From the NCBI GenBank assembly GCA_016186795.1, contig JACPKY010000001.1, forward strand, positions 129,357-193,356: a DNA stretch of 64,000 nt, read 5' to 3'. Shown here piece after piece: positions 2,452-64,000 of this stretch. The notes under the pieces are model-generated. The model was not told the DNA's origin and ran no database searches. It saw only the letters and a list, made by a program, of their open reading frames with translations. Positions within the stretch are counted from its first letter, which is position 1; every line of letters starts with the position of its first letter. Origin of the DNA: Candidatus Gottesmanbacteria bacterium. GTDB lineage: Bacteria > Patescibacteriota > Microgenomatia > 2-02-FULL-39-11. The position numbers and the translations under genes are program-made.

Positions 2452-3216
2452 CTATTTCAATACGTCCCCTTCCGGACGAGCAAAAACGATAAGCCGCTTA
2501 AGTGTCGTCCCGGGTGGCCAACACGTTTGCAGCGTTAATTGCTCATGAGTCGTTGGAACGGTTAAATAGTGGACTTCGGAGGGATCAACAATCAGTTTAT
2601 TGACTACCCGATAGATGTGTCTGTTTCCTTTATAAAACACATCGACTTCATCGCCGTTTTCCAGTTCTTTCAGGAGATAAAAAATAGCATTGTATCTTCC
2701 CACATTCCAAAATGCATCGGTTGAGTGGGCGAAAAGATAGATGTTTCCTGATATTCCCGGAAATACAGTACCTGCGGCGTGGGCAACGCCCTTTTCCAAT
2801 GTGGAAAGGTATTCATCGGGATTCCCAGCATCAACATTTGGGAAAATCGGAGCGTTTGCGCCAATTTTGGGTATGATGATACCAAACTGCGCAGAGACTG
2901 GTGACAGAACCTCGGTTTTATTCCCACCGGTAATATTTCCAAAAAATGTTGGTTTTCCAGAAGGGGTTGGAGTCACAAGAGATTCAAGGGAAGGTGAAGG
3001 CGTAATTTCTGTAACTGGAACTGTTTGGGTTGGATACTCAACAACATAACGAACATTTCTTGCAAGATTGATGCGGTAGAGAAATTCCAGATAGAAAGCC
3101 GGACCAAAGGTCATTGCCATGCCCCAGAGGGAAAAAAGGAGAAAGAAATTCCCAAGGGTTCGCAGGATAAGAAACTGGATTTGGTGACGGCTAAGTTTCA
3201 TAGGAACTTCTTCCAA
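2452..3216 (-). CDS. Sortase (transpeptidase) family protein
   Basis: N-terminal TM. Catalytic His (IYLFAHS) and TLxTC motif (QLTLQTCWP). Conserved Arg downstream. Confidence 0.75.
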   Translation of the reverse strand: MEEVPMKLSRHQIQFLILRTLGNFFLLFSLWGMAMTFGPAFYLEFLYRINLARNVRYVVEYPTQTVPVTEITPSPSLESLVTPTPSGKPTFFGNITGGNKTEVLSPVSAQFGIIIPKIGANAPIFPNVDAGNPDEYLSTLEKGVAHAAGTVFPGISGNIYLFAHSTDAFWNVGRYNAIFYLLKELENGDEVDVFYKGNRHIYRVVNKLIVDPSEVHYLTVPTTHEQLTLQTCWPPGTTLKRLIVFARPEGDVLK

Positions 3217-43939: not shown

Positions 43940-44935
43940 TTAGCGGCTAAATGACCTTGGAAGTTGGAGATGACGGGATTGACTTACCGATTCCGTCGGA
44001 GTTGGTGGGATACTCGTCGGTTGTGGAGTACTCGTTGGATTTGTTGGAAATGGAAATGAAAGTGTCGGTAGAATGGGACGAATCCAACGAAGCGTTGGAA
44101 GTATCAATGTATACGGTGTCGGAGTAGGTATTACGCCAAAGAAATGTATCAGACTATCTCCTCCTATCATGGTTCCATCAATTCCATTTGGGGTGCTGTC
44201 AACAACCGTTGTTGTTCCTCGTAACTGATCCATCCGCCACATGACAACTGTACTATCATCTCCTAGTAAGTCTCCATCATAGGCTCCACTTGACCAAAGA
44301 CCAGCAACATCTCGAACCACTTTGGAAAGACGAACTTCGTCGATTGCCCCTTTGAAACTGGCAGGATTTCCGAATGGTTCCGTATAAGATCCGCCTAAAA
44401 TGATTGTTGTCCCGATGGGCTTTAGTGTCGAAATCGTAATCGTTGGATCGGTCACTTGGGTACCATTGATAAACAGTCTCGTTTTTGTACTATCAATTGT
44501 TACTGCAATATGACTCCATACCCCTGATGAGAGCTGCCCTGAAGTGATAGTCACCTGTCCTCCACTCCCATGTCGATATGTCAAAGACAATGACCCTCCA
44601 TTGATGCTAACTTCATAGGCAAGAACATCTCCTGAGGGAGTACCAACTGAGAGAATCTTTTGGATACCAGAGATTGAATTGGGTTTCACCCAGGCCTCAA
44701 AAGTAAATGCAGGTGGAGGGAAACTATTTGCATTGGTTGCTTTGACGTATCCCCCATTTAACTCCAGATAATTAGAAATAAGTGATTGAGCTTTGGTCTG
44801 GAAAAATATCGGCAATACGAAGGAAAATGAAAGTAATATAACTAAAATTGCAAGGAATTTTTTCATAAAAATATTCGGGAGTAACGAACGGGGCAGAAGT
44901 TTCGATATGATAACCTGCCAAGGAATTACTGTCAA
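43940..44935 (-). CDS. Membrane-anchored LamG/concanavalin-like domain protein with Pro/Thr tail
   Basis: FTFEAWVKPNSISGIQKILSVG LamG signature. Confidence 0.6.
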   Translation of the reverse strand: MTVIPWQVIISKLLPRSLLPNIFMKKFLAILVILLSFSFVLPIFFQTKAQSLISNYLELNGGYVKATNANSFPPPAFTFEAWVKPNSISGIQKILSVGTPSGDVLAYEVSINGGSLSLTYRHGSGGQVTITSGQLSSGVWSHIAVTIDSTKTRLFINGTQVTDPTITISTLKPIGTTIILGGSYTEPFGNPASFKGAIDEVRLSKVVRDVAGLWSSGAYDGDLLGDDSTVVMWRMDQLRGTTTVVDSTPNGIDGTMIGGDSLIHFFGVIPTPTPYTLILPTLRWIRPILPTLSFPFPTNPTSTPQPTSIPPTPTESVSQSRHLQLPRSFSR

Positions 44936-44998: not shown

Positions 44999-46597
44999 AT
45001 GGGAAAAATAACCTCAAAAGTCAAAGAGAAAGAATATTCTCGAAATACAGATTTCTACAAATTTACTGCTACTATAGTTCTCGGTATCCTCCTTGTCGGT
45101 GCAACAGTATATATAAACACCATGACGTTTCAGAACCAAACAAGTGCAAGTCGAAATAACCTGAATATTCAACCAATCAAGGAAGTACCTATAACACAGT
45201 TATTACCTTCTTCGGCTCCTACACTTTACCCATTTGGACTGGCTGGATTTACCCTTCTAAATCCTTCACCTCCATACAAGGCATATACCGACTTCATCAA
45301 CCAAAGCGGTGCAAAACTCATTTCACATTCCGTTCGATGGTTGGATATCGAACCTGTAAAAGGCGAGTATAACTTTGAATCTCGAGAGGGAACATGGCTT
45401 TCTGTAGCGATTCCTGAGTATGACCAATATTGTCGTCGAAACGATATGCAATGTACCATATTGTTTGGCAACCCACCAGATTGGGCGCACGAAAAGGCAG
45501 GAACAGGATCAGATTGTCTCCCTATCGATGAAGAGGATTTCGACGCAATGGCAGATGCAGCAGCAGAAGTCGTAAAGCGATTCGGTTCCACAACCTCGGG
45601 ACTACAAATTCTTAATGAGCCGGATTTTGCCCATTGTTATGGAGGATATGATGATCAAAACCAAAATGGCCAAATTGATTATAAAGACTATGCACTGATC
45701 GTGAAAAAAATCTATCAGGCAATTAAAGAGGTTGATCCTTCTTATCCAGTTCTCGTTGGCAGATTTGCTTCAGATCCATCATTTAATCAACATAGCCAAC
45801 TGAATAAAGATCGTGACGGCACAAAAATAAACCTTATCGATTTTCTTCCGCAGTTTCTATCTTACAGTCAACAAGAACTTGGCGGGCAGTATTTCGACTA
45901 CTTGGATATCCACTACTATGAAGGCTCTCATAATCACTCATTTGAGCCATTCCACTCAAAAGACTCGTATGGAGAAGGTGGAGGCGGAATTCGGGGAAAA
46001 ACGTTTTGGGCAAGAGATCTTCTTACTCAATATGGAGGAGAAGATATCCCAATTATTTACTCGGAAATAGGCTATGCAACGTATGGATATCCCGAAACGC
46101 AAACGTATCTTGGGAGACAAGCTGAAGAGGTCTTTAAACTATACGCACAGGGATTATCTGCTGGAGCAAAATCATTAAGCTGGTATTGTATCGGGGATTT
46201 CAGTACAGCGTGCGTACGAACAACCCCATCTGAGAGTGCATTCAGTTTGCGCCTTCTGGATGGATCTTCTAACAATAATCCACCACTTACTCCCCGACCA
46301 TCGTATCGTGCGTATCAAGCGATTGCGAAAGAGTTAAAAGATACCCGGTATAACGATGTAGACGACACGGACGGTATAGAAGGATATCTCTTTGAAACAG
46401 ATGAAAATAACAAAGAAGTTCTCTGGTCGAGATCTTCTTCACCTGTCGAAAAAGTGTTTACCACTTCCTCTTTACACATGTACTCGGCAGTCGGAGAAGA
46501 AGAAAATATTCAAGATGGGGAAACAGATGATCTAGACGGTCAAAAGAATGGTTCTATCACAATCAGTATTTCTTCTCCGACTCTTATTGTTTGGTAA
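44999..46597 (+). CDS. Membrane-anchored glycoside hydrolase, clan GH-A (GH5-like)
   Basis: ILNEPDF acid/base Glu motif and IYSEIGY nucleophile motif. N-terminal TM. Confidence 0.65.
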   Translation: MGKITSKVKEKEYSRNTDFYKFTATIVLGILLVGATVYINTMTFQNQTSASRNNLNIQPIKEVPITQLLPSSAPTLYPFGLAGFTLLNPSPPYKAYTDFINQSGAKLISHSVRWLDIEPVKGEYNFESREGTWLSVAIPEYDQYCRRNDMQCTILFGNPPDWAHEKAGTGSDCLPIDEEDFDAMADAAAEVVKRFGSTTSGLQILNEPDFAHCYGGYDDQNQNGQIDYKDYALIVKKIYQAIKEVDPSYPVLVGRFASDPSFNQHSQLNKDRDGTKINLIDFLPQFLSYSQQELGGQYFDYLDIHYYEGSHNHSFEPFHSKDSYGEGGGGIRGKTFWARDLLTQYGGEDIPIIYSEIGYATYGYPETQTYLGRQAEEVFKLYAQGLSAGAKSLSWYCIGDFSTACVRTTPSESAFSLRLLDGSSNNNPPLTPRPSYRAYQAIAKELKDTRYNDVDDTDGIEGYLFETDENNKEVLWSRSSSPVEKVFTTSSLHMYSAVGEEENIQDGETDDLDGQKNGSITISISSPTLIVW

Positions 46598-47890: not shown

Positions 47891-49090
47891 ATGAAGGCAA
47901 AGAAACTTCTTTCTATTTTCCTTTTTGTTCTTCCACTCTTCCTTTTTCTTCCGCTAGCTGCATCTGCTACAACACCTCTTGTTCAAGAGAAAATGCCTGC
48001 AGTTGAAATTAATCCAGATGATATGCCGAGAGACTATCCTCTCATGTATCCTCCTCCAACGATGAATACCGGACTTTATGAGCTTGCCATCTTTGATAAA
48101 AAAGGTGGAGCCTATATCGCCGGAAAAATCGTTTTTGATAAAAGCGACAAAGACCTTCTTGAGGACTTAAACATATTTATTCCCGGCAAAGATGCCCAGT
48201 TTGTAAATGTCGTTCACGAACAGTATGTATATAAAGAAACTTGCTATCCTTGGAAATATCCCCGGCCATTACCAGCTCAAATTCAAGGAGAACAAGTTGA
48301 GCCAACATTTGGAAATTCCACGCCGTCAGCACCAGGAGAGGAAATATCAGTCCCTCCTAGACCTTCAATCATGCCAGATGGGGATGAATACTGTCCCAAG
48401 CAGTATACTCAGGTCTATTCAACGGTTGATCCGGAAGTAACTATTGGAAAAAAAGGAGTCAATGTACGTATTTCAGCAACTGCCGAGGATGATACGTCCC
48501 AAGAGGCTCTTCTTTTCCTCTACAGGCTGCCGAGTGTGGCATTTAACATTTTCTCAAATCACTACTTTCGACTTGATACAGTTCAACTCCCCTTTACCAC
48601 TGCTTCAACTCAGGTAGGAATATTGGTCAAAGACGGGTTACACCTTCGAGGAGCTCCAGGATTTACTGCTGACTATGGCGGAGGGTACGTTCCGAGCTTT
48701 CGACCTTTGGAAAAGGCACGCAATTTAAACCGGGAAGATAATCAAGAACTGACAAATCTCTCCAATGAAATAGCTTACCAAGGAATGATTCGCCGTGGTG
48801 ATTCTGATGTTACTCCCGATTCTTCTTTGACTCTGTCAGGAGTCTACGGGACACATCTTCTCATGCTGTATGTGAAAGAGATATTCTTGGGAATTATCTT
48901 CGTCCTTGTCCTTATTGCAGCAATCTTATGGGCCATAAAATATTTTTTCAAGAACCATCTAAATCTAAGACTTATTCTTATCACGGTCGTCGCAACATTT
49001 TTCGTGACAATCTTTCTTGTTGCATTTATTCTTCTTCTCTTTTTTTACTTTCGAACCACGATTGGATTTGGATACTCTATCCCCGTGTAA
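47891..49090 (+). CDS. Secreted hypothetical protein with C-terminal TM helices
   Basis: Signal peptide. Two C-terminal TM segments. Confidence 0.55.
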   Translation: MKAKKLLSIFLFVLPLFLFLPLAASATTPLVQEKMPAVEINPDDMPRDYPLMYPPPTMNTGLYELAIFDKKGGAYIAGKIVFDKSDKDLLEDLNIFIPGKDAQFVNVVHEQYVYKETCYPWKYPRPLPAQIQGEQVEPTFGNSTPSAPGEEISVPPRPSIMPDGDEYCPKQYTQVYSTVDPEVTIGKKGVNVRISATAEDDTSQEALLFLYRLPSVAFNIFSNHYFRLDTVQLPFTTASTQVGILVKDGLHLRGAPGFTADYGGGYVPSFRPLEKARNLNREDNQELTNLSNEIAYQGMIRRGDSDVTPDSSLTLSGVYGTHLLMLYVKEIFLGIIFVLVLIAAILWAIKYFFKNHLNLRLILITVVATFFVTIFLVAFILLLFFYFRTTIGFGYSIPV

Positions 49091-51467: not shown

Positions 51468-53990
51468 TTAAACTACAAAATTAATGAGTTTCCCGGGGAC
51501 AAAAACGGTTTTGCGGATGGTTTTTCCTTCCAAATGCTTTTGCACTTTGGCTGACGATTTAGCTTTCTTCTCTACTTCCTCCTGAAGGGCTGCTTTTGGA
51601 GACTGGATACTAAATGAATCTCTTAATCTTCCATTAATCTGAACGACTATAATTGTTTGATCCTCGACAAGGAATTTCTCATCATATGATGGCCAAGGAT
51701 ATTTGTGAATCGAGTTAAATACTTCCTTTTCTGTTTTCTGTTTACTGTTTACTGTTAACTGAATTTCCTGCCACAGCTCTTCTGTCATATGTGGAGCAAA
51801 GGGAGCAAGAAGCAGTAACAAGCTTTTTATATGTTTTTCTGTTATCTGTCCGTCAGCTGGCGGATTGTTTTCTGTTAACTGATTTACATACTCCATGATG
51901 TGGGCAATTGCGGTATTGTAGCGAAGATTTTCTAGATCTTCGGTGACTTCTTTGATACAACGGTGCATGGCTTTTGTATTTTTGAGATTCTTCGTCCCGA
52001 TAGTATCGGGATTCAGAATGACACTATTTGCAAGGCGCCAAACACGACTCAAGAATTTGTACATCCCGGCAATTCCTGTGTCTCTGAAATCCCCACCATG
52101 ATCAAACGGGCCCAAAAACATAAGGTACGTCCGAAGTGTATCTGCTCCGTATTTTTTGATGTAGCTATCAGGAATGATGACATTTCCTCGAGACTTACTC
52201 ATCTTGGCTCCTTCTGCAATAATAAGACCATGGGCATAAAATCTCGTAAACGGTTCATCGAAATCCAAAAGCCCCATATCGTGAAATACCATCGTAATGA
52301 ACCGGGAATACAGAAGATGGAGGACTGAATGCTCTGCACCCCCAATATATATATTTACAGGAAGCCATTTTTTGGTAATTTCCGGATCCCAAGGGACTTG
52401 TCCTGAGGCAGCGCAGCGAGTCGAAGGATATCGAAACTGATACCACGCGCTATCAAGAAATGTATCCGACACATCAGTCTCCCGACGTGCTTGACCTCCG
52501 CAGTGAGGACATTTCACGTGATAAAAATCTGGATCCTGAGCAAGAGGCGCTTTCCCTGTTCCGGTGGGTTGGTAATTTTTTATAAAAGGAAGTTTCACTG
52601 GAAGATCTTCTTCGGCAACTGGATACCACTTTTTGCATGCATCGCAATAAATCATGGGAATCGGCGGACCCCAGTAGCGCTGTCGTGAGATGCACCAATC
52701 GCGAAGATGCATGGTCACTGTTTTTTTACCATTTCCCTTATTTATAATGTAATCGGCAATTAAACCCTTGGCTTTCTCTGTCGGCATGCCCGTAAACTCC
52801 CCTGCTTTTTCCATGACTCCTTCCCCAATGTAGGCATGATCCAATTTTTTGGGATCAAGGGGTTTCCCGTCTTTTGGGACGATAACTGGGACAATGGGAA
52901 GGTCATATTTTTTGGCAAACTCAAAATCTTTCTGGTCGTGAGCAGGGTTGCATTTAACAATTCCTGTACCAAACTCCATCACTGCGAAGTTAGCGATAAA
53001 TATTTTCATCTTCCATCCTGTCAAATGGTTAATCGCAAATCTTCCAATGAAATAACCCTTTTTATCTTTTATGGCGGCTTGTGGATCTTTCTTATTTTCG
53101 GAAATTACAATCTTACAAAATTCTTTAGCACCCTTTTCATAGGATGTTCCTTTGACAAGAGTGGAAATGATTGGGTGCTCGGGTGAAATAACAATAAATG
53201 TTGACCCCCAGGACGTATGCGGCCACGTAGTAAATGTAGTAAGCTTGACATCCATTCCGTCTATTTGCCAATCTTCCAATAGCCCTTCGGTTTTCCCAAT
53301 CCAATTTCTTTGGGCAACCTTCACTTTGTTGGTCCAGTTTAACGTCTCCAGATCTTTCAGGAGTCTATCCGCGTATGCGGTAATGCGAAAATACCACTGT
53401 TCCATCTCGCGCTTTTCTACAACAGATTTGCACCGTTCACACCGTCCTTCAATCACCTGTTCATCGGAAAGAACTGTTTTGCATGAGGGACAGAAATTGA
53501 CAGGAGACTTTTTGCGGTATGCAAGACCGCGTTTAAATAGTTGAATGAAAATCCACTGCGTCCATTTATAATAGGCTGGATCATAGGTTTCCAGTTTACT
53601 TTCCCAAGCAAAACCGTTTCCTATGCTAGTTAGTTGCCGATAGAAATTTTGCTGACTGACCTTTGCCTGTTGGGCAGGGTGTTTGCCGATTTTGATGGCG
53701 TAGTTTTCACTATGAATGCCAAATCCGTCAAGACCGATTGGTTCAAAGACGCCTAGACCTTTCATCCGCATAAACCTCCCATAAATATCTGCTCCGGTAA
53801 AAGCATACATGTTCCCAACATGAAGACCCTCGGCTGACGGGTATGGAAACATCATGAGGTTATAGAACGGCTTTGGAGCCTTTTTGATGTCCGGCTGGTA
53901 GACTTTTTCCTTTTGCCATTTCTCCTGCCACTTGGACTCATAAGATTCTGGGTGGAGTTTGTCGACTTTTTTGGGCTGTTTGAATGGCAT
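51468..53990 (-). CDS. leuS: Leucine--tRNA ligase
   Basis: HVGNMYAF (HIGH) and KMSKSRGN (KMSKS). CxxC zinc knuckles. 840 aa. Confidence 0.9.
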   Translation of the reverse strand: MPFKQPKKVDKLHPESYESKWQEKWQKEKVYQPDIKKAPKPFYNLMMFPYPSAEGLHVGNMYAFTGADIYGRFMRMKGLGVFEPIGLDGFGIHSENYAIKIGKHPAQQAKVSQQNFYRQLTSIGNGFAWESKLETYDPAYYKWTQWIFIQLFKRGLAYRKKSPVNFCPSCKTVLSDEQVIEGRCERCKSVVEKREMEQWYFRITAYADRLLKDLETLNWTNKVKVAQRNWIGKTEGLLEDWQIDGMDVKLTTFTTWPHTSWGSTFIVISPEHPIISTLVKGTSYEKGAKEFCKIVISENKKDPQAAIKDKKGYFIGRFAINHLTGWKMKIFIANFAVMEFGTGIVKCNPAHDQKDFEFAKKYDLPIVPVIVPKDGKPLDPKKLDHAYIGEGVMEKAGEFTGMPTEKAKGLIADYIINKGNGKKTVTMHLRDWCISRQRYWGPPIPMIYCDACKKWYPVAEEDLPVKLPFIKNYQPTGTGKAPLAQDPDFYHVKCPHCGGQARRETDVSDTFLDSAWYQFRYPSTRCAASGQVPWDPEITKKWLPVNIYIGGAEHSVLHLLYSRFITMVFHDMGLLDFDEPFTRFYAHGLIIAEGAKMSKSRGNVIIPDSYIKKYGADTLRTYLMFLGPFDHGGDFRDTGIAGMYKFLSRVWRLANSVILNPDTIGTKNLKNTKAMHRCIKEVTEDLENLRYNTAIAHIMEYVNQLTENNPPADGQITEKHIKSLLLLLAPFAPHMTEELWQEIQLTVNSKQKTEKEVFNSIHKYPWPSYDEKFLVEDQTIIVVQINGRLRDSFSIQSPKAALQEEVEKKAKSSAKVQKHLEGKTIRKTVFVPGKLINFVV

Positions 53991-54041: not shown

Positions 54042-55082
54042 CTAAATCCAACCGCGCCAACGAAATACCGCAAGCATACTTGCTGCAATGGCAAACATAA
54101 TACTTCCAATAAGAAAAAGGGCATCGGGATGCTGGGCAAAAGGGAGGAAGTACAAATTCATTCCATAGATATTGGTGATAAAGGTTAACGGCAGAAGCGT
54201 TGCGGAGAAGATGGTAAGGACTTTGATTGTTTCGTTTGTTTTAAATGAAAGATAGCTTTCAAATGTACGGGATAAATTGTCGGAGAGTTCATTGACGTCT
54301 TCAATTCTATCCCAGATTTTCCTCATGTGATCAGAAATATTAGTAAAGTAGGTACGCAGTTCCTTATCGACCAAAGTATGCCGAGTTTCCAAAAGATACA
54401 TAAATGAATTGACTTGTGGCTTCATAATTGTCTGAAAATAGGTAACATTCCTTCGCAGAAACGAAATTTGTTTGGCAACAATGCGCGGCTTTTTGGTAAA
54501 CACATCGGTATCGATAACTTCAAGAGCCTTTTCCACTTGTTCAACAAGTGGAAATATCGTATCAACAAGTTTATCGATACTCCGGTAGAGAAGAAATCCA
54601 GGTCCTTGGGAAAAGTAGGTTTGTTTATTTTTTCTTTTTTTGGTTATTGTGTCAATTAGATTGTCAAATGAGGGAAAGTCGTGATTGGAAATCATGATAA
54701 CGTCGTTTTTGGTGAGAAAAAAATCTACTTCCTTCGATTCAATTTTTTTACTTTCCTCATTATATTCCGGGAAATGTAAAACGAAAAAAATATAATCCGG
54801 ATCAAAGTCTATTTTTGGCCTTTGGATAAGGGAAATAACATCATCAAGATGGGTCGGATGGAAGGAGTAATGTCTCTTGAGGTAGGAAACATTTTTGGGT
54901 GTGGGAAACCAGATGACGATGAGTTTCCCCTGATCGTACGGAATGATTTTCATGCGGTTTTTATCGACTTTCGGTTTCTCGGGAGTACCCGGCAGGTGGA
55001 GAAAATCCCGAGCGCGACTAAAGGGATTGGTCACTGCGGTAAGGAAAGGATGAAGAGAGACCTGAGGAAGAGGTAAATTCAT
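54042..55082 (-). CDS. corA: CorA-family magnesium/cobalt transporter
   Basis: YGMN motif at the start of the penultimate TM. Two C-terminal TM helices. Confidence 0.85.
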   Translation of the reverse strand: MNLPLPQVSLHPFLTAVTNPFSRARDFLHLPGTPEKPKVDKNRMKIIPYDQGKLIVIWFPTPKNVSYLKRHYSFHPTHLDDVISLIQRPKIDFDPDYIFFVLHFPEYNEESKKIESKEVDFFLTKNDVIMISNHDFPSFDNLIDTITKKRKNKQTYFSQGPGFLLYRSIDKLVDTIFPLVEQVEKALEVIDTDVFTKKPRIVAKQISFLRRNVTYFQTIMKPQVNSFMYLLETRHTLVDKELRTYFTNISDHMRKIWDRIEDVNELSDNLSRTFESYLSFKTNETIKVLTIFSATLLPLTFITNIYGMNLYFLPFAQHPDALFLIGSIMFAIAASMLAVFRWRGWI

Positions 55083-55211: not shown

Positions 55212-55496
55212 ATGTATATGAATCTGACAAATTATATTACGACTACAGAATTAAGAACAAAATCAGCCGAGCTGGTAAAAATGCTAAAACAAGGAGTCGG
55301 TCTCTCCCTTATTCATCGATCAAAGATTATCGGCAAGATATCTCCTCAACTCCCGGAAGCACCACCTATTAAAGATATAAGAGTCTTGGAAAAATTACTA
55401 AAAGACATTCTTCCGGGAAAAATTATAAACAGAGGGGAAAGAAAGAAAAGATACCGACAATACCTGAAAGAAAGATATGGCAAGAGTATTTCTTGA
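55212..55496 (+). CDS. Phd/YefM-like antitoxin
   Basis: ITTTELRTKSAELVKMLKQG...IIGKISP pattern. Overlaps the downstream PIN gene. Confidence 0.5.
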   Translation: MYMNLTNYITTTELRTKSAELVKMLKQGVGLSLIHRSKIIGKISPQLPEAPPIKDIRVLEKLLKDILPGKIINRGERKKRYRQYLKERYGKSIS

Positions 55497-55851
55497 TACC
55501 AACTTTTTCATTGATTTGGTAGAGAGAAGAAAAGAGACTAATTTACCGCAATTTAAAAATTATCAACTTTTTGTTTCTCCTCTTTCTTTTCATATCCTGG
55601 CTTATATCTACCGCTACAAATTTCCCAATACTAAATTTACTGATCTTATGGGGTTATTTACAATTATTCCTCTTACACAAACCGTCTTGGAAAAAGGCAG
55701 TCTGGGACCAACCGGCGATTTTGAAGACAATCTTCAGCTGCATTCGGCGGTTGAAGGAGACTGTGAATTATTTTTGACCAGTGATAAAAAACTTCTAACG
55801 ATGAATTATTTTGGGACAACAAAAATTACAAATTCTCTCTTGATAAGGTAG
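55477..55851 (+). CDS. PIN-domain toxin (VapC-like)
   Basis: VFLDTNFFI, DFEDNL, TSDKKL acidic quartet. Confidence 0.75.
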   Translation: MARVFLDTNFFIDLVERRKETNLPQFKNYQLFVSPLSFHILAYIYRYKFPNTKFTDLMGLFTIIPLTQTVLEKGSLGPTGDFEDNLQLHSAVEGDCELFLTSDKKLLTMNYFGTTKITNSLLIR

Positions 55852-55884: not shown

Positions 55885-56505
55885 TTGGCAAATTCACTAT
55901 CTCCAGTCACGATGACATCCACTCCATCGATGACGATAGGTAAACTTTGGTGCTATACTGAACGTATGAAAAAAACTGCCCTCCATATTCTCATCATGGG
56001 GATATCAGTTGCCCTTATCTTTCTCTGGGTTGCCAGTGCCGAACTCTCCTACTACTCTTTGCAACTGACCGCCATACTTCTCCTGACACTTATTATTACT
56101 CACAGAATCCTCAAACCATCATCGTTCAAACTAGCAGAAAGCACGATATCGACAATGGCAGTTCTTCTTATTACGAACGCTACAGGAGGACTGACATCTC
56201 CCCTATTTTTCCTCAACTACTTTATCCTGTTTGAGTTGTCCCTCCTTCTTGAACCGTTGATTGCCATTGCGGTGTCTGTCCTTTTTCTCCTTTTTTATTT
56301 TTTGACTGCTGAGGTTGGCTATGGCACACTCACCTACTTGGAACTTCTTGCCTTCCCCCTCATTACCCCGTTTGCCTACTTTTTTGGCTCATTCTACTTT
56401 AAATCGACAAATCAGAAAAGGGAGATCCGCACACTTTCCAAAAAGGTTGAGGTACTTGAGGAAAAACTCGTGTCTGAAGAAATGAGTCATTTGAAACGAT
56501 CATGA
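55885..56505 (+). CDS. Polytopic membrane protein with C-terminal coiled coil (first gene of 4-gene operon)
   Basis: Start possibly 55966 (MKKTALHIL). 5-6 TM. Stop overlaps the next ATG. Confidence 0.5.
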   Translation: MANSLSPVTMTSTPSMTIGKLWCYTERMKKTALHILIMGISVALIFLWVASAELSYYSLQLTAILLLTLIITHRILKPSSFKLAESTISTMAVLLITNATGGLTSPLFFLNYFILFELSLLLEPLIAIAVSVLFLLFYFLTAEVGYGTLTYLELLAFPLITPFAYFFGSFYFKSTNQKREIRTLSKKVEVLEEKLVSEEMSHLKRS

Positions 56506-57224
56506 AAAAAGCGTTGGTCATCGTTTTCGCAATGGTCATCATGTCTTTTTCTGTCAGTGGAAGTTTCGCCCAAGATATGTCCTCTGAATCGTTTCGAATT
56601 CAAGGCGGGAATTTCAATATGACCTCTGGAAATAAGGCATCGGAAAACTTTAACCTTGCTGATGTTGTTGGCCAAGTTGCTGCCCAAATATTTGCCTCTA
56701 AAGGATATATCATTAATGCCGGATTTTTAAATGCGGCAGGAGGAGAACTATTTGGGTTTAGCGTCGCTCCTTCGGTTTTGGATTTTGGCAGTCTTTCTCC
56801 AAATATTCCTGTTGAGGGAAAACTCACTCTCACTGTTAATATTGGCAATGTGAGTGGATACACCGTGAGTGTTATCGAAAACAACCCTCTGAAAACGCTG
56901 GTTGAAGCACAAATCCCAGATACTTCATGCAACAGCGATAGTCCGTGTTCGCCAATTCAGGCAGGAATGTGGACTGGTACAGGAAGAGCTGGCTTTGGGT
57001 ACCATATGGAAGGAAAAACCGTGACCAAAGACTTTAAAGACGAGACAGCATTTCGACCCTTTGCCGCAACAATTAGAAATGAAAGACCGGCACTTATTAT
57101 GCAGTCGAAAGCAAAGAAAGTCGCGGATGTTGCCCATATGACGGTGAAAGTCTTGATCGACCAAAATCAACCTGTCGGACAGTATAAAAATATCCTGCAT
57201 TTTACTGCCCTTCTTGGCTTATGA
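56502..57224 (+). CDS. Secreted beta-rich surface protein
   Basis: Signal peptide MKKALVIVFAMVIMSFSVSGSFA. LDFGSL...LTLTVNIGNVSGYTVSV beta-sandwich-like. Confidence 0.55.
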   Translation: MKKALVIVFAMVIMSFSVSGSFAQDMSSESFRIQGGNFNMTSGNKASENFNLADVVGQVAAQIFASKGYIINAGFLNAAGGELFGFSVAPSVLDFGSLSPNIPVEGKLTLTVNIGNVSGYTVSVIENNPLKTLVEAQIPDTSCNSDSPCSPIQAGMWTGTGRAGFGYHMEGKTVTKDFKDETAFRPFAATIRNERPALIMQSKAKKVADVAHMTVKVLIDQNQPVGQYKNILHFTALLGL

Positions 57225-58165
57225 AATATTTTGCTTTTATGAGAGTTTTCAAATGGATTCCAGTTCTTATACTGCCAGTGTGGATTTTCTTTGCAAAAAT
57301 TTCCCCTGCTTCAGCCCAGACACTTTCACTTTCTATTTCTCCGCCGCTTCTGGAAGTTATGATCAAACCAGGTAAATCTATAACACAGGTATACAAATTA
57401 ACAAATAACGGAGAGACGACTATTATAACAGCAAGAATTGCCGAGTTGGGTGTAAAAGGCATTGAAGAAGATCCAACCTTTCAACTGGAAAACTGGATCG
57501 GACTGGTAAGTAGTGATACAACATTTGGAAAACCATTTCTCCTTGAACGTGGGAAGACGAAAGAGTTTATTTTAAAAATTAATCCGCCGGAGAGTGTTGA
57601 GGAGAAAGATTACTACCGAGTCCTTCTTTTTACCACGAAACCAAACCCACCAAGCGATAATTCCCAGTCTCAAATTGCGCAAACGCTTGGCAGTCCCCTC
57701 CTTATCACTACGACAAAAACTGGACTTCTGAATAAAAATGTGGAAATTGTTACCTTTGATGTACCTAAGATTATTGACTCGTTTGGACCCCTCCAAGCAA
57801 CAATCGCGGTTTCCAATACCGGAAGCACATACACGAGACCAGTTGGGACCATTACCCTGAAGGGGCTTATCGGCAGAGGGACGTTTGAAATTTCACCCCG
57901 CATTATTATGGCGGGCCAAAAGAGAAATCTGACAACAGAGATAAGTTCTAGTAACGATCCAAATAGTCCAACTATCGATATTTCCGGAATTTATTTTGGT
58001 CCGTACACGCTCACAGTTGACTTTACGCTTGATCAAGGAACAATAACACTTAGCCAAACAAAGAAATTTTATGCGCTCCCCTGGAAACTACTTCTTGTCC
58101 TTTTCGTTATCATTCTTTTTGTGGTCGTTGTTCGTACTCGAAGAAGGAAAGTTTCAAAAAAATGA
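57221..58165 (+). CDS. Secreted surface protein with C-terminal TM anchor and basic tail (DUF916/DUF3324-like architecture)
   Basis: Signal peptide. Two beta-rich modules. ...LLLVLFVIILFVVVVRTRRRKVSKK. Confidence 0.55.
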   Translation: MKYFAFMRVFKWIPVLILPVWIFFAKISPASAQTLSLSISPPLLEVMIKPGKSITQVYKLTNNGETTIITARIAELGVKGIEEDPTFQLENWIGLVSSDTTFGKPFLLERGKTKEFILKINPPESVEEKDYYRVLLFTTKPNPPSDNSQSQIAQTLGSPLLITTTKTGLLNKNVEIVTFDVPKIIDSFGPLQATIAVSNTGSTYTRPVGTITLKGLIGRGTFEISPRIIMAGQKRNLTTEISSSNDPNSPTIDISGIYFGPYTLTVDFTLDQGTITLSQTKKFYALPWKLLLVLFVIILFVVVVRTRRRKVSKK

Positions 58166-59046
58166 TACTATTATTTTTACTGACGTTACTATTTATTAAT
58201 ATATCAAACACTCCTCAGGTTTGGGCGGTGGAACTGAAGGATTCATCAACTACACAGGCGTTGATTCCTATCAAAACAACACTCCATGTGTTTGGCTATA
58301 CCGCACCGTACAGCATTGTCCAGGCAACTGGAATCCGGGTTTTTGCCCAAACATCATCAGATCGAATTGGCTACTTTGAGATTGCCCAATTACCTCTTTC
58401 GTATGAGACTGTCGATATCTGCTTATCAACAATTGACGGGCTTGGAAGAGTCGGCTTTCCCCTCTGTATCAAAGCACCCGATGAGAATGAACCAACCGAT
58501 ATCGGGCCGCTTCTTCTATCGCCCACGATTTCACTCTCCGCAGGAATTATTTGGGAGAGACAACAGGTTAGTGCAACTGGACAAACTATCCCAAATTCGC
58601 AAGTAGAAATTTCATTTTTTGAAGCCACGCCTGATGAACTGGTGGGAAAATTCGTGAAAGAAGCATACGCTTTTGGATTACCACTTCTTACCGGAAAATC
58701 CGACAGCCGCGGCTACTATAGCGTGAACCTTCCGACAGTGAAATCTTCACAGTTTCGAGTCTTTACGAAATCTTTCTACTATGGACTGCCGAGTCCCAAA
58801 AGTCATACGCTTTCTTTTTCTGTCGGATGGATCATCTACTATTGGCTATTGTATATTTTTCCAAAGCTGATGCTCATTCTTCTTGTGACTGTTGGAATGG
58901 CCTATCTTGTCTATCGTGAAAAGAAAACGAGGAGCATTAGAATTTGGGCTGTCTATTTCAACGAAACACGACTGATACCGTTTGAGATAAGAACACGTCT
59001 TCAACTGAAGCGGATATGGTATAATCTCCGGGGTTTGTGGAAGTAA
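58162..59046 (+). CDS. Secreted surface protein with C-terminal TM anchor
   Basis: Signal peptide. C-terminal TM plus basic tail. Confidence 0.55.
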   Translation: MILLFLLTLLFINISNTPQVWAVELKDSSTTQALIPIKTTLHVFGYTAPYSIVQATGIRVFAQTSSDRIGYFEIAQLPLSYETVDICLSTIDGLGRVGFPLCIKAPDENEPTDIGPLLLSPTISLSAGIIWERQQVSATGQTIPNSQVEISFFEATPDELVGKFVKEAYAFGLPLLTGKSDSRGYYSVNLPTVKSSQFRVFTKSFYYGLPSPKSHTLSFSVGWIIYYWLLYIFPKLMLILLVTVGMAYLVYREKKTRSIRIWAVYFNETRLIPFEIRTRLQLKRIWYNLRGLWK

Positions 59047-59389
59047 GATCAAAGAATGCCCTCCCAAACGTATCGGTGACTGGTTGTACTTGGCTCACGG
59101 TTAAGGGCCCTGAAATTCGAAGCTTTACCGTCTTTGTGGACATACCTAGACCTTGAGTATTGAGTAAAAATACCGTCACGCGGACTATTGAGGTGCCATT
59201 TGCCTGTGAAATGAGCGGTGAAGCAAAAAGGTAGGAATTCTCAAGAGACATTGAGCTTAATCCAGGGGCGCTCGCCTGACCAAAAAGAGAGGTTCTCGTC
59301 CGTGAAATGGTTATAGCCACAAGAACGAATAAGAGAGAAGATGCCAAGATACTAAGAAGGTAATAGCGGTGATAATCGAGCCGACCCAT
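58958..59389 (-). CDS. Membrane-anchored Ig-like (Big-type) domain protein
   Basis: N-terminal TM. 89-bp 3' overlap with the convergent gene lowers confidence. Confidence 0.35.
   Translation of the reverse strand: MGRLDYHRYYLLSILASSLLFVLVAITISRTRTSLFGQASAPGLSSMSLENSYLFASPLISQANGTSIVRVTVFLLNTQGLGMSTKTVKLRISGPLTVSQVQPVTDTFGRAFFDLTSTNPGDYTISASVEDVFLSQTVSVVFR

Positions 59390-60205: not shown

Positions 60206-64000
<3,795 letters not shown>

Follow-up and report, generated by a model that had tools for sequence, protein, structure and literature searches.

Bacteria of the Candidate Phyla Radiation (CPR) live attached to the cells of a host, which makes the appendages on their surface central to how they live. 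One such appendage is the Pam pilus of Candidatus Mycosynbacter amalyticus, first described in 2026 (Troman et al., bioRxiv 10.64898/2026.03.03.709456). According to the accessible parts of this preprint, from which all statements about it made here are taken, the PamA and PamB filaments have been solved by cryo-electron microscopy and consist of two-domain pilins joined by donor-strand exchange. The shaft pilins PamA, PamB and PamE have an N-terminal sandwich, a linker donor strand and a C-terminal domain, whereas PamT is a single-domain tip pilin. PamC and PamD are FimC/PapD-like chaperones that unusually retain a C-terminal transmembrane (TM) helix, and PamR, an RbmA-like protein with two FnIII domains, is a terminator or anchor held in the membrane by a C-terminal helix. 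The system is usher-less, and CPR bacteria have no outer membrane. Pam pili have so far been recognised in Saccharimonadia only, and Pam pilins have been found only in CPR bacteria (10.64898/2026.03.03.709456). In this work, we describe a four-gene locus, g1 to g4, in a stretch of 64,000 nt from Candidatus Gottesmanbacteria (CPR, Microgenomatia). This whole stretch is referred to below as the window, and coordinates are positions within it unless a related locus is named.

Systems with a comparable logic are known outside the CPR. In the Lactobacillales and Bacillales, the WxL/Csc clusters encode a small WxL protein, a large WxL protein and WxLIP, which is made of DUF916, DUF3324 and a TM segment; WxLIP thus has two Ig domains and a C-terminal TM helix, and AlphaFold2 (AF2) predicts that it donates a strand to its small or large partner (PMC10599100). 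The TasA/TapA fibres of Bacillus and the archaeal bundling pili AbpA/AbpB are, in turn, usher-less fibres built by donor-strand exchange (PMC9245690). The accessible text of the Pam preprint makes no mention of WxL (10.64898/2026.03.03.709456).

The g1 to g4 cluster is probably a reduced and divergent Gottesmanbacteria form of the CPR Pam pilus system, that is, a Sec-dependent, usher-less, donor-strand assembly on the outer face of the cytoplasmic membrane. The reading draws on how the genes are arranged, on the homology of g2 to PamT and to Pam pilin domains, on the folds modelled for g2 and g3, and on the synteny with relatives, the shaft-pilin pair being absent from this locus; from these we infer that g3 acts as a chaperone, that strands are exchanged, what g1 and g4 do, and that the product has no shaft. 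The initial annotation had suggested an undescribed surface complex, adhesin or fibre assembly system. A surface or fibre-assembly role for the products stands, but the system is not undescribed, since the g2 family matches the PamT and CPR_Pam_pilin_C models. The system type is thus already published, and what is new is the reduced Gottesmanbacteria variant, with its conserved g1 and no shaft pilin at the locus.

Gene structure and products of the g1 to g4 unit

The four genes are consecutive open reading frames (ORFs) on the forward strand, linked by ATGA stop/start overlaps at 56502-56505, 57221-57224 and 58162-58165. These 4-nt overlaps recur in relatives of only 45-70% identity (for example, in the related loci L001, L072, L074, L076 and L077) and are therefore conserved, not due to chance. 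The initial annotation had proposed an overlapping four-gene unit of one polytopic membrane protein and three signal-peptide proteins, two of them with C-terminal TM anchors. Both the unit and this composition were confirmed, the anchored proteins being g3 and g4 and the TM layout being read from a hydropathy scan (19-residue window) and from AF2 models of the g2 and g3 monomers. It had also taken the overlaps to imply stoichiometric co-expression; they do suggest translational coupling, but a fixed stoichiometry is not shown by them.

The second gene, g2 (56502..57224, + strand, 240 aa), encodes a PamT-like small pilin. It matches the NCBIfam model NF058579, "CPR-type pilus protein PamT" (241 positions), over residues 4-146 with an E-value of 2.9e-12, and its score of 46.5 bits, set against an equivalog cut-off of 240 bits, identifies it by sequence as related to PamT at the family level, not as an equivalog by the NCBI threshold. 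The family behaves in the same way, since 49 of 50 homologues match PamT (best E 1e-16) and 41 of the 50 match NF058581 (CPR_Pam_pilin_C, "Pam pilus system pilin subunit"). The protein has a Sec signal peptide, with a likely cleavage site at SFA|Q, followed by a beta-rich region whose C-terminal domain, of the Pam pilin type, contains a conserved Cys143/Cys149 pair, the only cysteines of the protein. Residues 85-240 of the AF2 model are confident, and the best Foldseek matches of the model in the PDB are the chaperone-usher pilins CfaB, FimA, PapE, CsuA/B, FimG and PapA. Many chaperone-usher pilins are present among its top 50 fold matches, which include no WxL chain even though 9i25 was in the library. 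The best-conserved part of the g2 family is the N-terminal segment of about 55 residues of the mature protein, the same part that matches PamT. Its most conserved stretch, residues 26-81 (window positions 56577-56745; GGNFNMTSGNK...DVVGQ...SKGYIIxAGF), is common to the PamT proteins of Saccharimonadia. In the model, residues 21-81 have a predicted local distance difference test score (pLDDT) below 50, and this coincidence of the highest conservation with the poorest AF2 confidence suggests that the segment may fold only on a partner or within a complex.

The product of g3 (57221..58165, + strand, 314 aa) is a candidate membrane-anchored, PapD-like chaperone, analogous to PamC and PamD, which it resembles in fold and architecture. 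In its AF2 model (pLDDT 92.2), the signal peptide is followed by a pair of Ig-like beta-sandwich domains, and a TM helix at residues 288-313 closes the C-terminus. The top global matches of this model in the PDB are the chaperones CfaA, Caf1M, DraB, CsuC, FimC and PapD (E 6e-8 to 3e-6, target-based TM-score, TMt, 0.5-0.59). Two structures of the Enterococcus faecium WxLIP, 9i1y and 9i25 (the latter bound to the long WxL protein), are matched with an E-value of 1e-7 and a query-based score (TMq) of 0.37-0.38, and RbmA, the PamR-like fold, with a similar E-value and a poorer global fit (TMq 0.26, root-mean-square deviation of about 15 Å). The strand motif LSLSIxPPLLEVMIKPGKSITQ (residues 37-62) is the best-conserved part of both g3 and its paralogue in the relatives, and E45, in the N-terminal strand, is an invariant Glu in the family alignment. 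The chaperones of chaperone-usher systems carry a conserved Arg there, which grips the C-terminus of the pilin. Judged from the alignment and not from a structural test, the Glu in place of Arg hints at a different grip on the subunit.

The last gene, g4 (58162..59046, + strand, 294 aa), encodes a protein that is anchored in the membrane, has two beta-sandwich domains of apparently transthyretin-like type and is a candidate for the base or anchor of the system, as a functional analogue of PamR. Alignment and hydropathy, the evidence used for this protein, indicate a signal peptide, a beta-rich ectodomain of two domains, a TM segment at about residues 221-251 and a basic cytoplasmic tail. The two domains carry GYTxP...SDxxGYF signatures and are joined by a strongly conserved linker (IGPLLLSPTISL); Cys87 and Cys102 are invariant, and the basic tail RLxLRRIWYNLR is specific to the clade. 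In 10 of 25 family members there is a weak match to CarboxypepD_reg, a transthyretin-like sandwich (best E 1.9e-5). Both g3 and g4 are identical (100%) to annotated proteins of a Candidatus Gottesmanbacteria metagenome-assembled genome, HYW55_01000 and HYW55_01005, respectively. All the homologues of g2 to g4 that were found are annotated as hypothetical, and a precomputed Pfam domain is present in only one of them, a g4 homologue with CarboxypepD_reg. Single-sequence Pfam searches with g1 to g4 returned nothing useful, and g2, g3, g4 and the family profiles of g1, g2 and g3 had no meaningful match among PDB chain sequences, searches by which the Pam structures are not detectable.

The module opens with g1 (55966..56505, + strand, 179 aa), the polytopic membrane protein. 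Its start is almost certainly the ATG at 55966, because the homologues are 179-184 aa long and align from residue 1-2 of this short form; the initial annotation had placed it at the TTG at 55885. The hydropathy scan shows three merged hydrophobic blocks, in which we read about five to six TM helices from the sequence, without a cleavable signal peptide. The protein ends in a charged cytoplasmic tail that likely forms a coiled coil, and its sole PDB profile matches are coiled-coil proteins; neither the sequence nor the family profile has a credible match in Pfam, NCBIfam or the PDB. A motif, TGGLxSPLFFLxYF, and the residues G74, S78, F81, P97 and P135 are conserved. The family counts 262 representatives among 1.84 billion proteins, nearly all of about 120-290 aa and three of 316-359 aa, and no recurrent fusion to a kinase or another enzyme domain is seen among these 262. 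The possibility that g1 is a truncated PilS-type sensor was also considered, and is left as a weak lead: 6TM_PilS is matched faintly in 2 of 67 homologues (E 0.015), with no fused kinase.

A promoter-like site (ATGACG-18-TATACT, with TG before the -10; 55930..55959, + strand), a pattern match from a consensus scan, ends 6 nt before the g1 ATG, so that the transcript may have only a very short leader or none. No terminator is predicted after g4, whose 3' end instead overlaps a convergent gene for a Big_1 Ig-like protein, and Rfam and tRNA scans found no RNA genes at 50-64 kb.

Synteny, distribution and the reduced form

Related loci, about 140 in total, were gathered from look-ups and two collection scans and classified with hidden Markov models (HMMs). 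Conservation of the cluster across relatives, one of the checks proposed initially, was found: it is a co-oriented unit whose g1-g2-g3 core is nearly invariant. Of 95 non-redundant loci, 88 have g1 upstream of g2 and co-oriented with it, and in 94 the chaperone directly follows g2. Most Microgenomatia (Roizmanbacteria and others) have a full form, g1-g2-g3-(large pilin)-(chaperone 2)-g4-Big_1, whose last operon gene in L003 aligns with g4 at 32% identity (E 9e-40). The large pilin of these relatives is a two-domain protein of 480-520 aa, the C-terminal 160 residues or so of which align to residues 82-243 of g2. It matches CPR_Pam_pilin_C with E-values of 1e-5 to 1e-6; when the g1-, g3- and g4-like and second-chaperone proteins of the relatives were also scanned against NCBIfam, a Pam model was matched by the large pilins only. 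Chaperone 2 adjoins the large pilin and is a paralogue of g3 (hhalign probability 99.3%). Of the 66 loci with sufficient flank, 42 have a large pilin within 7 kb. Depending on the locus, this second module adjoins the core, lies beyond intervening comEA/comEC genes, or is inverted.

The Gottesmanbacteria-type loci follow another pattern. Every one of those long enough to judge (the window, L001, L005, L006, L063-L065, L067, L069, L072, L074 and L077-L079) reads g1..g2-g3-g4-Big_1, and the large pilin and second chaperone are absent from all of them; L034 is an independent instance of this reduced form. An HMM search found no other g2-like or g3-like ORF in the window. Since every type of pilin has a neighbouring chaperone paralogue of its own, and since in this clade the large pilin is missing jointly with its chaperone, the arrangement fits cognate chaperone-subunit pairs.

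The absence of the large pilin from the locus could also mean that these bacteria build a full-length Pam pilus with a PamA-like shaft pilin and chaperone encoded elsewhere in the genome, the cluster providing the tip, one chaperone and the anchor. We consider this possible, though rather unlikely. The system is indeed modular in other Microgenomatia, where the large pilin, chaperone 2 and g4 can lie 3-5 kb from g1-g2-g3 across comEA/comEC, or inverted upstream (L014, L035, L039, L042), and the 64 kb inspected are part of a larger contig and genome. However, when the second module moves, g4 and Big_1 travel with the large pilin, whereas here g4-Big_1 stay joined to g3, in places by a 4-nt overlap. 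By this arrangement, the pilin-chaperone pair seems to have been cleanly deleted, and L034 shows the same pattern independently. Moreover, no large pilin lies within about ±8 kb of any Gottesmanbacteria-type locus or in the window, and the 57 g2 homologues recovered are all at most 296 aa long.

Regarding distribution, all the records with an informative taxon among 58 GTDB loci are Gottesmanbacteria, Roizmanbacteria, Microgenomates or Patescibacteria, and this CPR-only distribution agrees with the reported restriction of Pam pilins to CPR bacteria. Many third-party-annotation bins that contain the cluster (L008, L010, L012, L015, L022 and some 20 more GTDB loci) are titled uncultured Gammaproteobacteria, or else Nevskiaceae or Pseudomonadales; these bins are almost certainly mislabelled Patescibacteria.

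The number of subunits varies between lineages, since some loci have two large pilins, a second g2-like gene or an enlarged gene in the g2 position. Such extra subunits occur in L044 (7981-9453 and 10495-11934), L098 (15841-16713), L100 (3376-4356), L130 (6417-6647) and L132 (13256-14227), and the gene in the g2 position exceeds 350 aa in L117 and L119. Between or beside the two modules, Roizmanbacteria and other Microgenomatia carry comEA and a comEC in two pieces, one the Competence part and the other the metallo-beta-lactamase part (L014 8034-11261, L034 7996-11006, L004 7021-8672, L003 1185-3922), a recurrent linkage of DNA-uptake channel genes with a pilus-like locus.

Comparison with Pam, WxL and other surface systems

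The likeness to the Pam system is broad. The host is a CPR bacterium, the components are predicted to be exported by Sec, and there is no usher-sized ORF in the cluster. The g2 protein is almost as long as the PamT model that it detectably matches, g3 has a pair of Ig domains like those of PapD/FimC and a TM helix at its C-terminus, as described for PamC and PamD, and g4 is a TM-anchored, two-beta-sandwich candidate base. Relatives of the same class have PamA-like two-domain pilins and two chaperones, and a fibre-like giant protein is encoded nearby. A PamT-like pilin domain, a candidate tethered chaperone and a restriction to the CPR are thus all found.

Several observations weigh against this assignment. 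Neither the cluster nor the 64-kb window contains a shaft pilin of the PamA/PamB/PamE type, and the locus lacks a second chaperone, so any filament is putative. The g2 sequence is very divergent, at 46 bits against a cut-off of 240 and with only residues 4-146 covered; g2 itself has no match to CPR_Pam_pilin_C at E<=1 (the limit to which the Pfam and NCBIfam scans of g2 and g3 were read), its fold matches to pilins are weak (E 4e-3 to 5e-2, probability of about 0.99, TMt 0.45-0.53), and its best-conserved segment is the one modelled with low confidence. The g3 fold is as close by E-value to RbmA and WxLIP as to the chaperones, so the name chaperone rests partly on context, and the g3 family matches neither the NCBIfam Pam models, among which PamC and PamD may not be represented, nor PDB chain sequences. 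The g4 protein has two beta-rich domains and a TM segment, but its family matches CarboxypepD_reg, and it appears transthyretin-like by sequence, not FnIII/RbmA-like. The gene order also differs. Finally, g1 and the convergent Big_1 gene are conserved in the locus, and neither a g1-like membrane protein nor a Big_1 gene appears in the accessible account of the pam operon in M. amalyticus, all components of which are said to carry signal peptides, unlike g1 (10.64898/2026.03.03.709456).

The fold match of g3 to WxLIP raises the question of whether the cluster could encode a non-filamentous complex of the WxL/Csc type, in which g3 would be a WxLIP-like scaffold permanently binding g2 by strand insertion, without polymerisation, as a distant relative of the Firmicutes WxL clusters. 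The two systems share a monoderm-type envelope and a common logic, with a small single-domain partner, a large one that carries this domain at its C-terminus, and a two-Ig TM protein predicted to donate a strand (PMC10599100). WxLIP is matched by g3 as well as the chaperone-usher chaperones are, and the lack of a shaft pilin at the locus makes a static complex plausible. Faint matches to WxLIP_PGBD (PF06030, DUF916) occur in 4 of 89 g3 homologues (best E 0.03). However, g3 itself matches neither DUF916 nor DUF3324 at E<=1, the WxL family (PF13731) is matched by neither g2 nor any of its 50 homologues, and g2 has no W-x-L motif and resembles chaperone-usher and Pam pilins instead of any WxL chain. 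An LPXTG protein of the CscD kind is missing as well, the host phylum differs, and the relatives have PamA-like two-domain pilins, whose homologues form filaments in M. amalyticus, as far as the accessible text of the preprint goes. A WxL-type complex is therefore improbable. The initial annotation had likened the layout to WxL/DUF916-DUF3324 loci and had asked for a profile check; the g1 to g4 products do not belong to these families by sequence, and what remains of the resemblance is structural, in the fold of g3. On the model comparison, the analogy is apt in the sense of working alike, not as membership.

It is highly improbable that the locus is the decaying, non-functional remnant of a pam operon that was complete before its shaft pilin was lost, because, even though the large pilin and second chaperone of most relatives are absent here, the four ORFs are intact and conserved at 45-70% identity over at least 15 independent Gottesmanbacteria-type loci, with the overlaps, signal peptides, Cys pairs and TM helices preserved across the clade, all of which argues for purifying selection.

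The remaining described systems are more distant. The classical chaperone-usher pili (Pap, Fim, Caf, Csu, CFA/I) share the chaperone and pilin-domain folds and, presumably, the chemistry of donor-strand complementation and exchange; contrary to them, this system has neither outer membrane nor usher, and its candidate chaperone is tethered to the membrane instead of soluble. TasA/TapA and AbpA/AbpB have in common with it a monoderm envelope, usher-less donor-strand exchange and an accessory or anchor protein in the operon. However, their subunit is a jelly roll and they use no PapD-like chaperone, the cluster contains no SipW-type peptidase, and the only fold match of g2 to that system, TasA 8aur, is weak (E 0.038, rank 42). 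A type V (lipoprotein) pilus was ruled out by the lack of a lipobox Cys in g2, whose two cysteines are those of the pair, and a type IV pilin by its ordinary Sec signal peptide and beta-rich fold. A sortase-assembled pilus was rejected too, since LPXTG motifs are absent and no sortase gene lies within or next to the cluster. The absence of WxL and LPXTG motifs noted initially was upheld: none of the five proteins examined has an LPXTG-like motif, and the sole W-x-L strings lie at or inside TM segments. The sortase gene noted at 2452..3216 is real (Pfam Sortase, E 6e-23), but its suggested link to the cluster does not hold, the gene being 53 kb away and g1 to g4 lacking a sorting signal.

Under the reading of a reduced Pam system, g2, g3 and g4 would be exported by Sec and their signal peptides removed. 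The g3 protein, tethered by its C-terminal helix and acting as a PapD-like chaperone, would complete the incomplete Ig-like C-terminal domain of g2, which would then be passed to a strand donor that replaces the chaperone. Held by its own TM helix, g4 would be the likely base on the membrane, and g1 would probably be a membrane platform or organiser of the assembly step. Since the clade has lost the two-domain PamA-like pilin together with its chaperone, the product would most likely not be a long heteropolymeric pilus, but g2 displayed with g4 as a short membrane-anchored tip or adhesin, or else a polymer of g2 only; a g2 homopolymer would make use of the conserved N-terminal segment. A bolder and tentative version, which we regard as unlikely to hold as a whole, would see here a minimal shaft-less donor-strand system, with g2 self-polymerising through its 55-residue segment or clamped on g4, with g1 as an unrecognised "inner-membrane usher" platform, and with CPR Pam and Firmicutes WxL as two branches of one ancient family of chaperone-tethered strand complementation on monoderm envelopes.

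If the assignment to Pam is right, this locus and its relatives define a Pam-type system in Microgenomatia and extend Pam to Gottesmanbacteria, exposing a near-invariant core in which a PamT-like subunit and a tethered chaperone are accompanied by a membrane protein. A clade without the shaft pilin would offer a naturally minimal setting in which to study what tip subunit and chaperone achieve by themselves, and the likeness between the folds of g3 and WxLIP suggests a route to connect two poorly understood families of surface systems.

Neighbouring genes

The Big_1 gene (58958..59389, - strand) encodes a 143-aa Ig-like protein with an N-terminal TM anchor (Pfam Big_1, E 2.9e-12). It is convergent and directly follows g4 in most g4-containing loci, whereas in four loci (L036, L102, L138 and L140) a copy is co-oriented, L140 having a convergent copy as well. 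The two genes overlap tail to tail at their 3' ends by 89 nt in the window (58958-59046) and by 89-122 nt across the Gottesmanbacteria-type loci (for instance, L001 9797-9897, L063 11309-11409, L074 5051-5172 and L077 3463-3551). The codons for the RLxLRRIWYNLR tail of g4 lie antisense to those for the C-terminal end of the Big_1 protein, and in other lineages, such as L003, the tail is missing and the overlap shrinks to 8 nt. Judged from this arrangement, the conservation of the tail may be due in part to the constraint from the opposite strand.

Further downstream, a giant surface-fibre protein is encoded at 60206..64000 (+ strand), in an ORF of more than 1264 aa that runs past the end of the window. 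Its translation, hydropathy profile and Pfam matches show two cytoplasmic SAM-like repeats of the phage-integrase N-terminal type (Phage_int_SAM_1, E 2.8e-6), a TM segment at about residues 245-267 and a large ectodomain, followed by a collagen-type Gly-X-Thr/Ser repeat that extends over hundreds of residues (Collagen, E 4e-80). At least 25 loci, with both forms of the operon, have a homologue downstream of the cluster and co-oriented with it, which echoes the "tail fibre-like protein" that the accessible text of the preprint describes as consistently co-localised with pam operons (10.64898/2026.03.03.709456). The repeat also produces long spurious ORFs in other frames on both strands.

Upstream of the operon are found leuS (51468-53990, - strand), a CorA Mg2+ transporter gene (54042-55082, - strand; Pfam E 9e-52) and, directly before g1, an antitoxin/PIN-toxin pair (55212-55851, + strand). 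The same preprint reports that the pam operon in M. amalyticus has an orphan MazE-like antitoxin and a CorB-like Mg2+ transporter in its vicinity (10.64898/2026.03.03.709456), and this shared neighbourhood may be either a coincidence or a recurring theme. Between 7 and 12 kb upstream, a gene for a concanavalin-like Laminin_G_3 protein stands beside two ORFs of 532 and 399 aa without Pfam matches (43940-44935, - strand; 44999-46597 and 47891-49090, both + strand), and these may encode further uncharacterised surface proteins.

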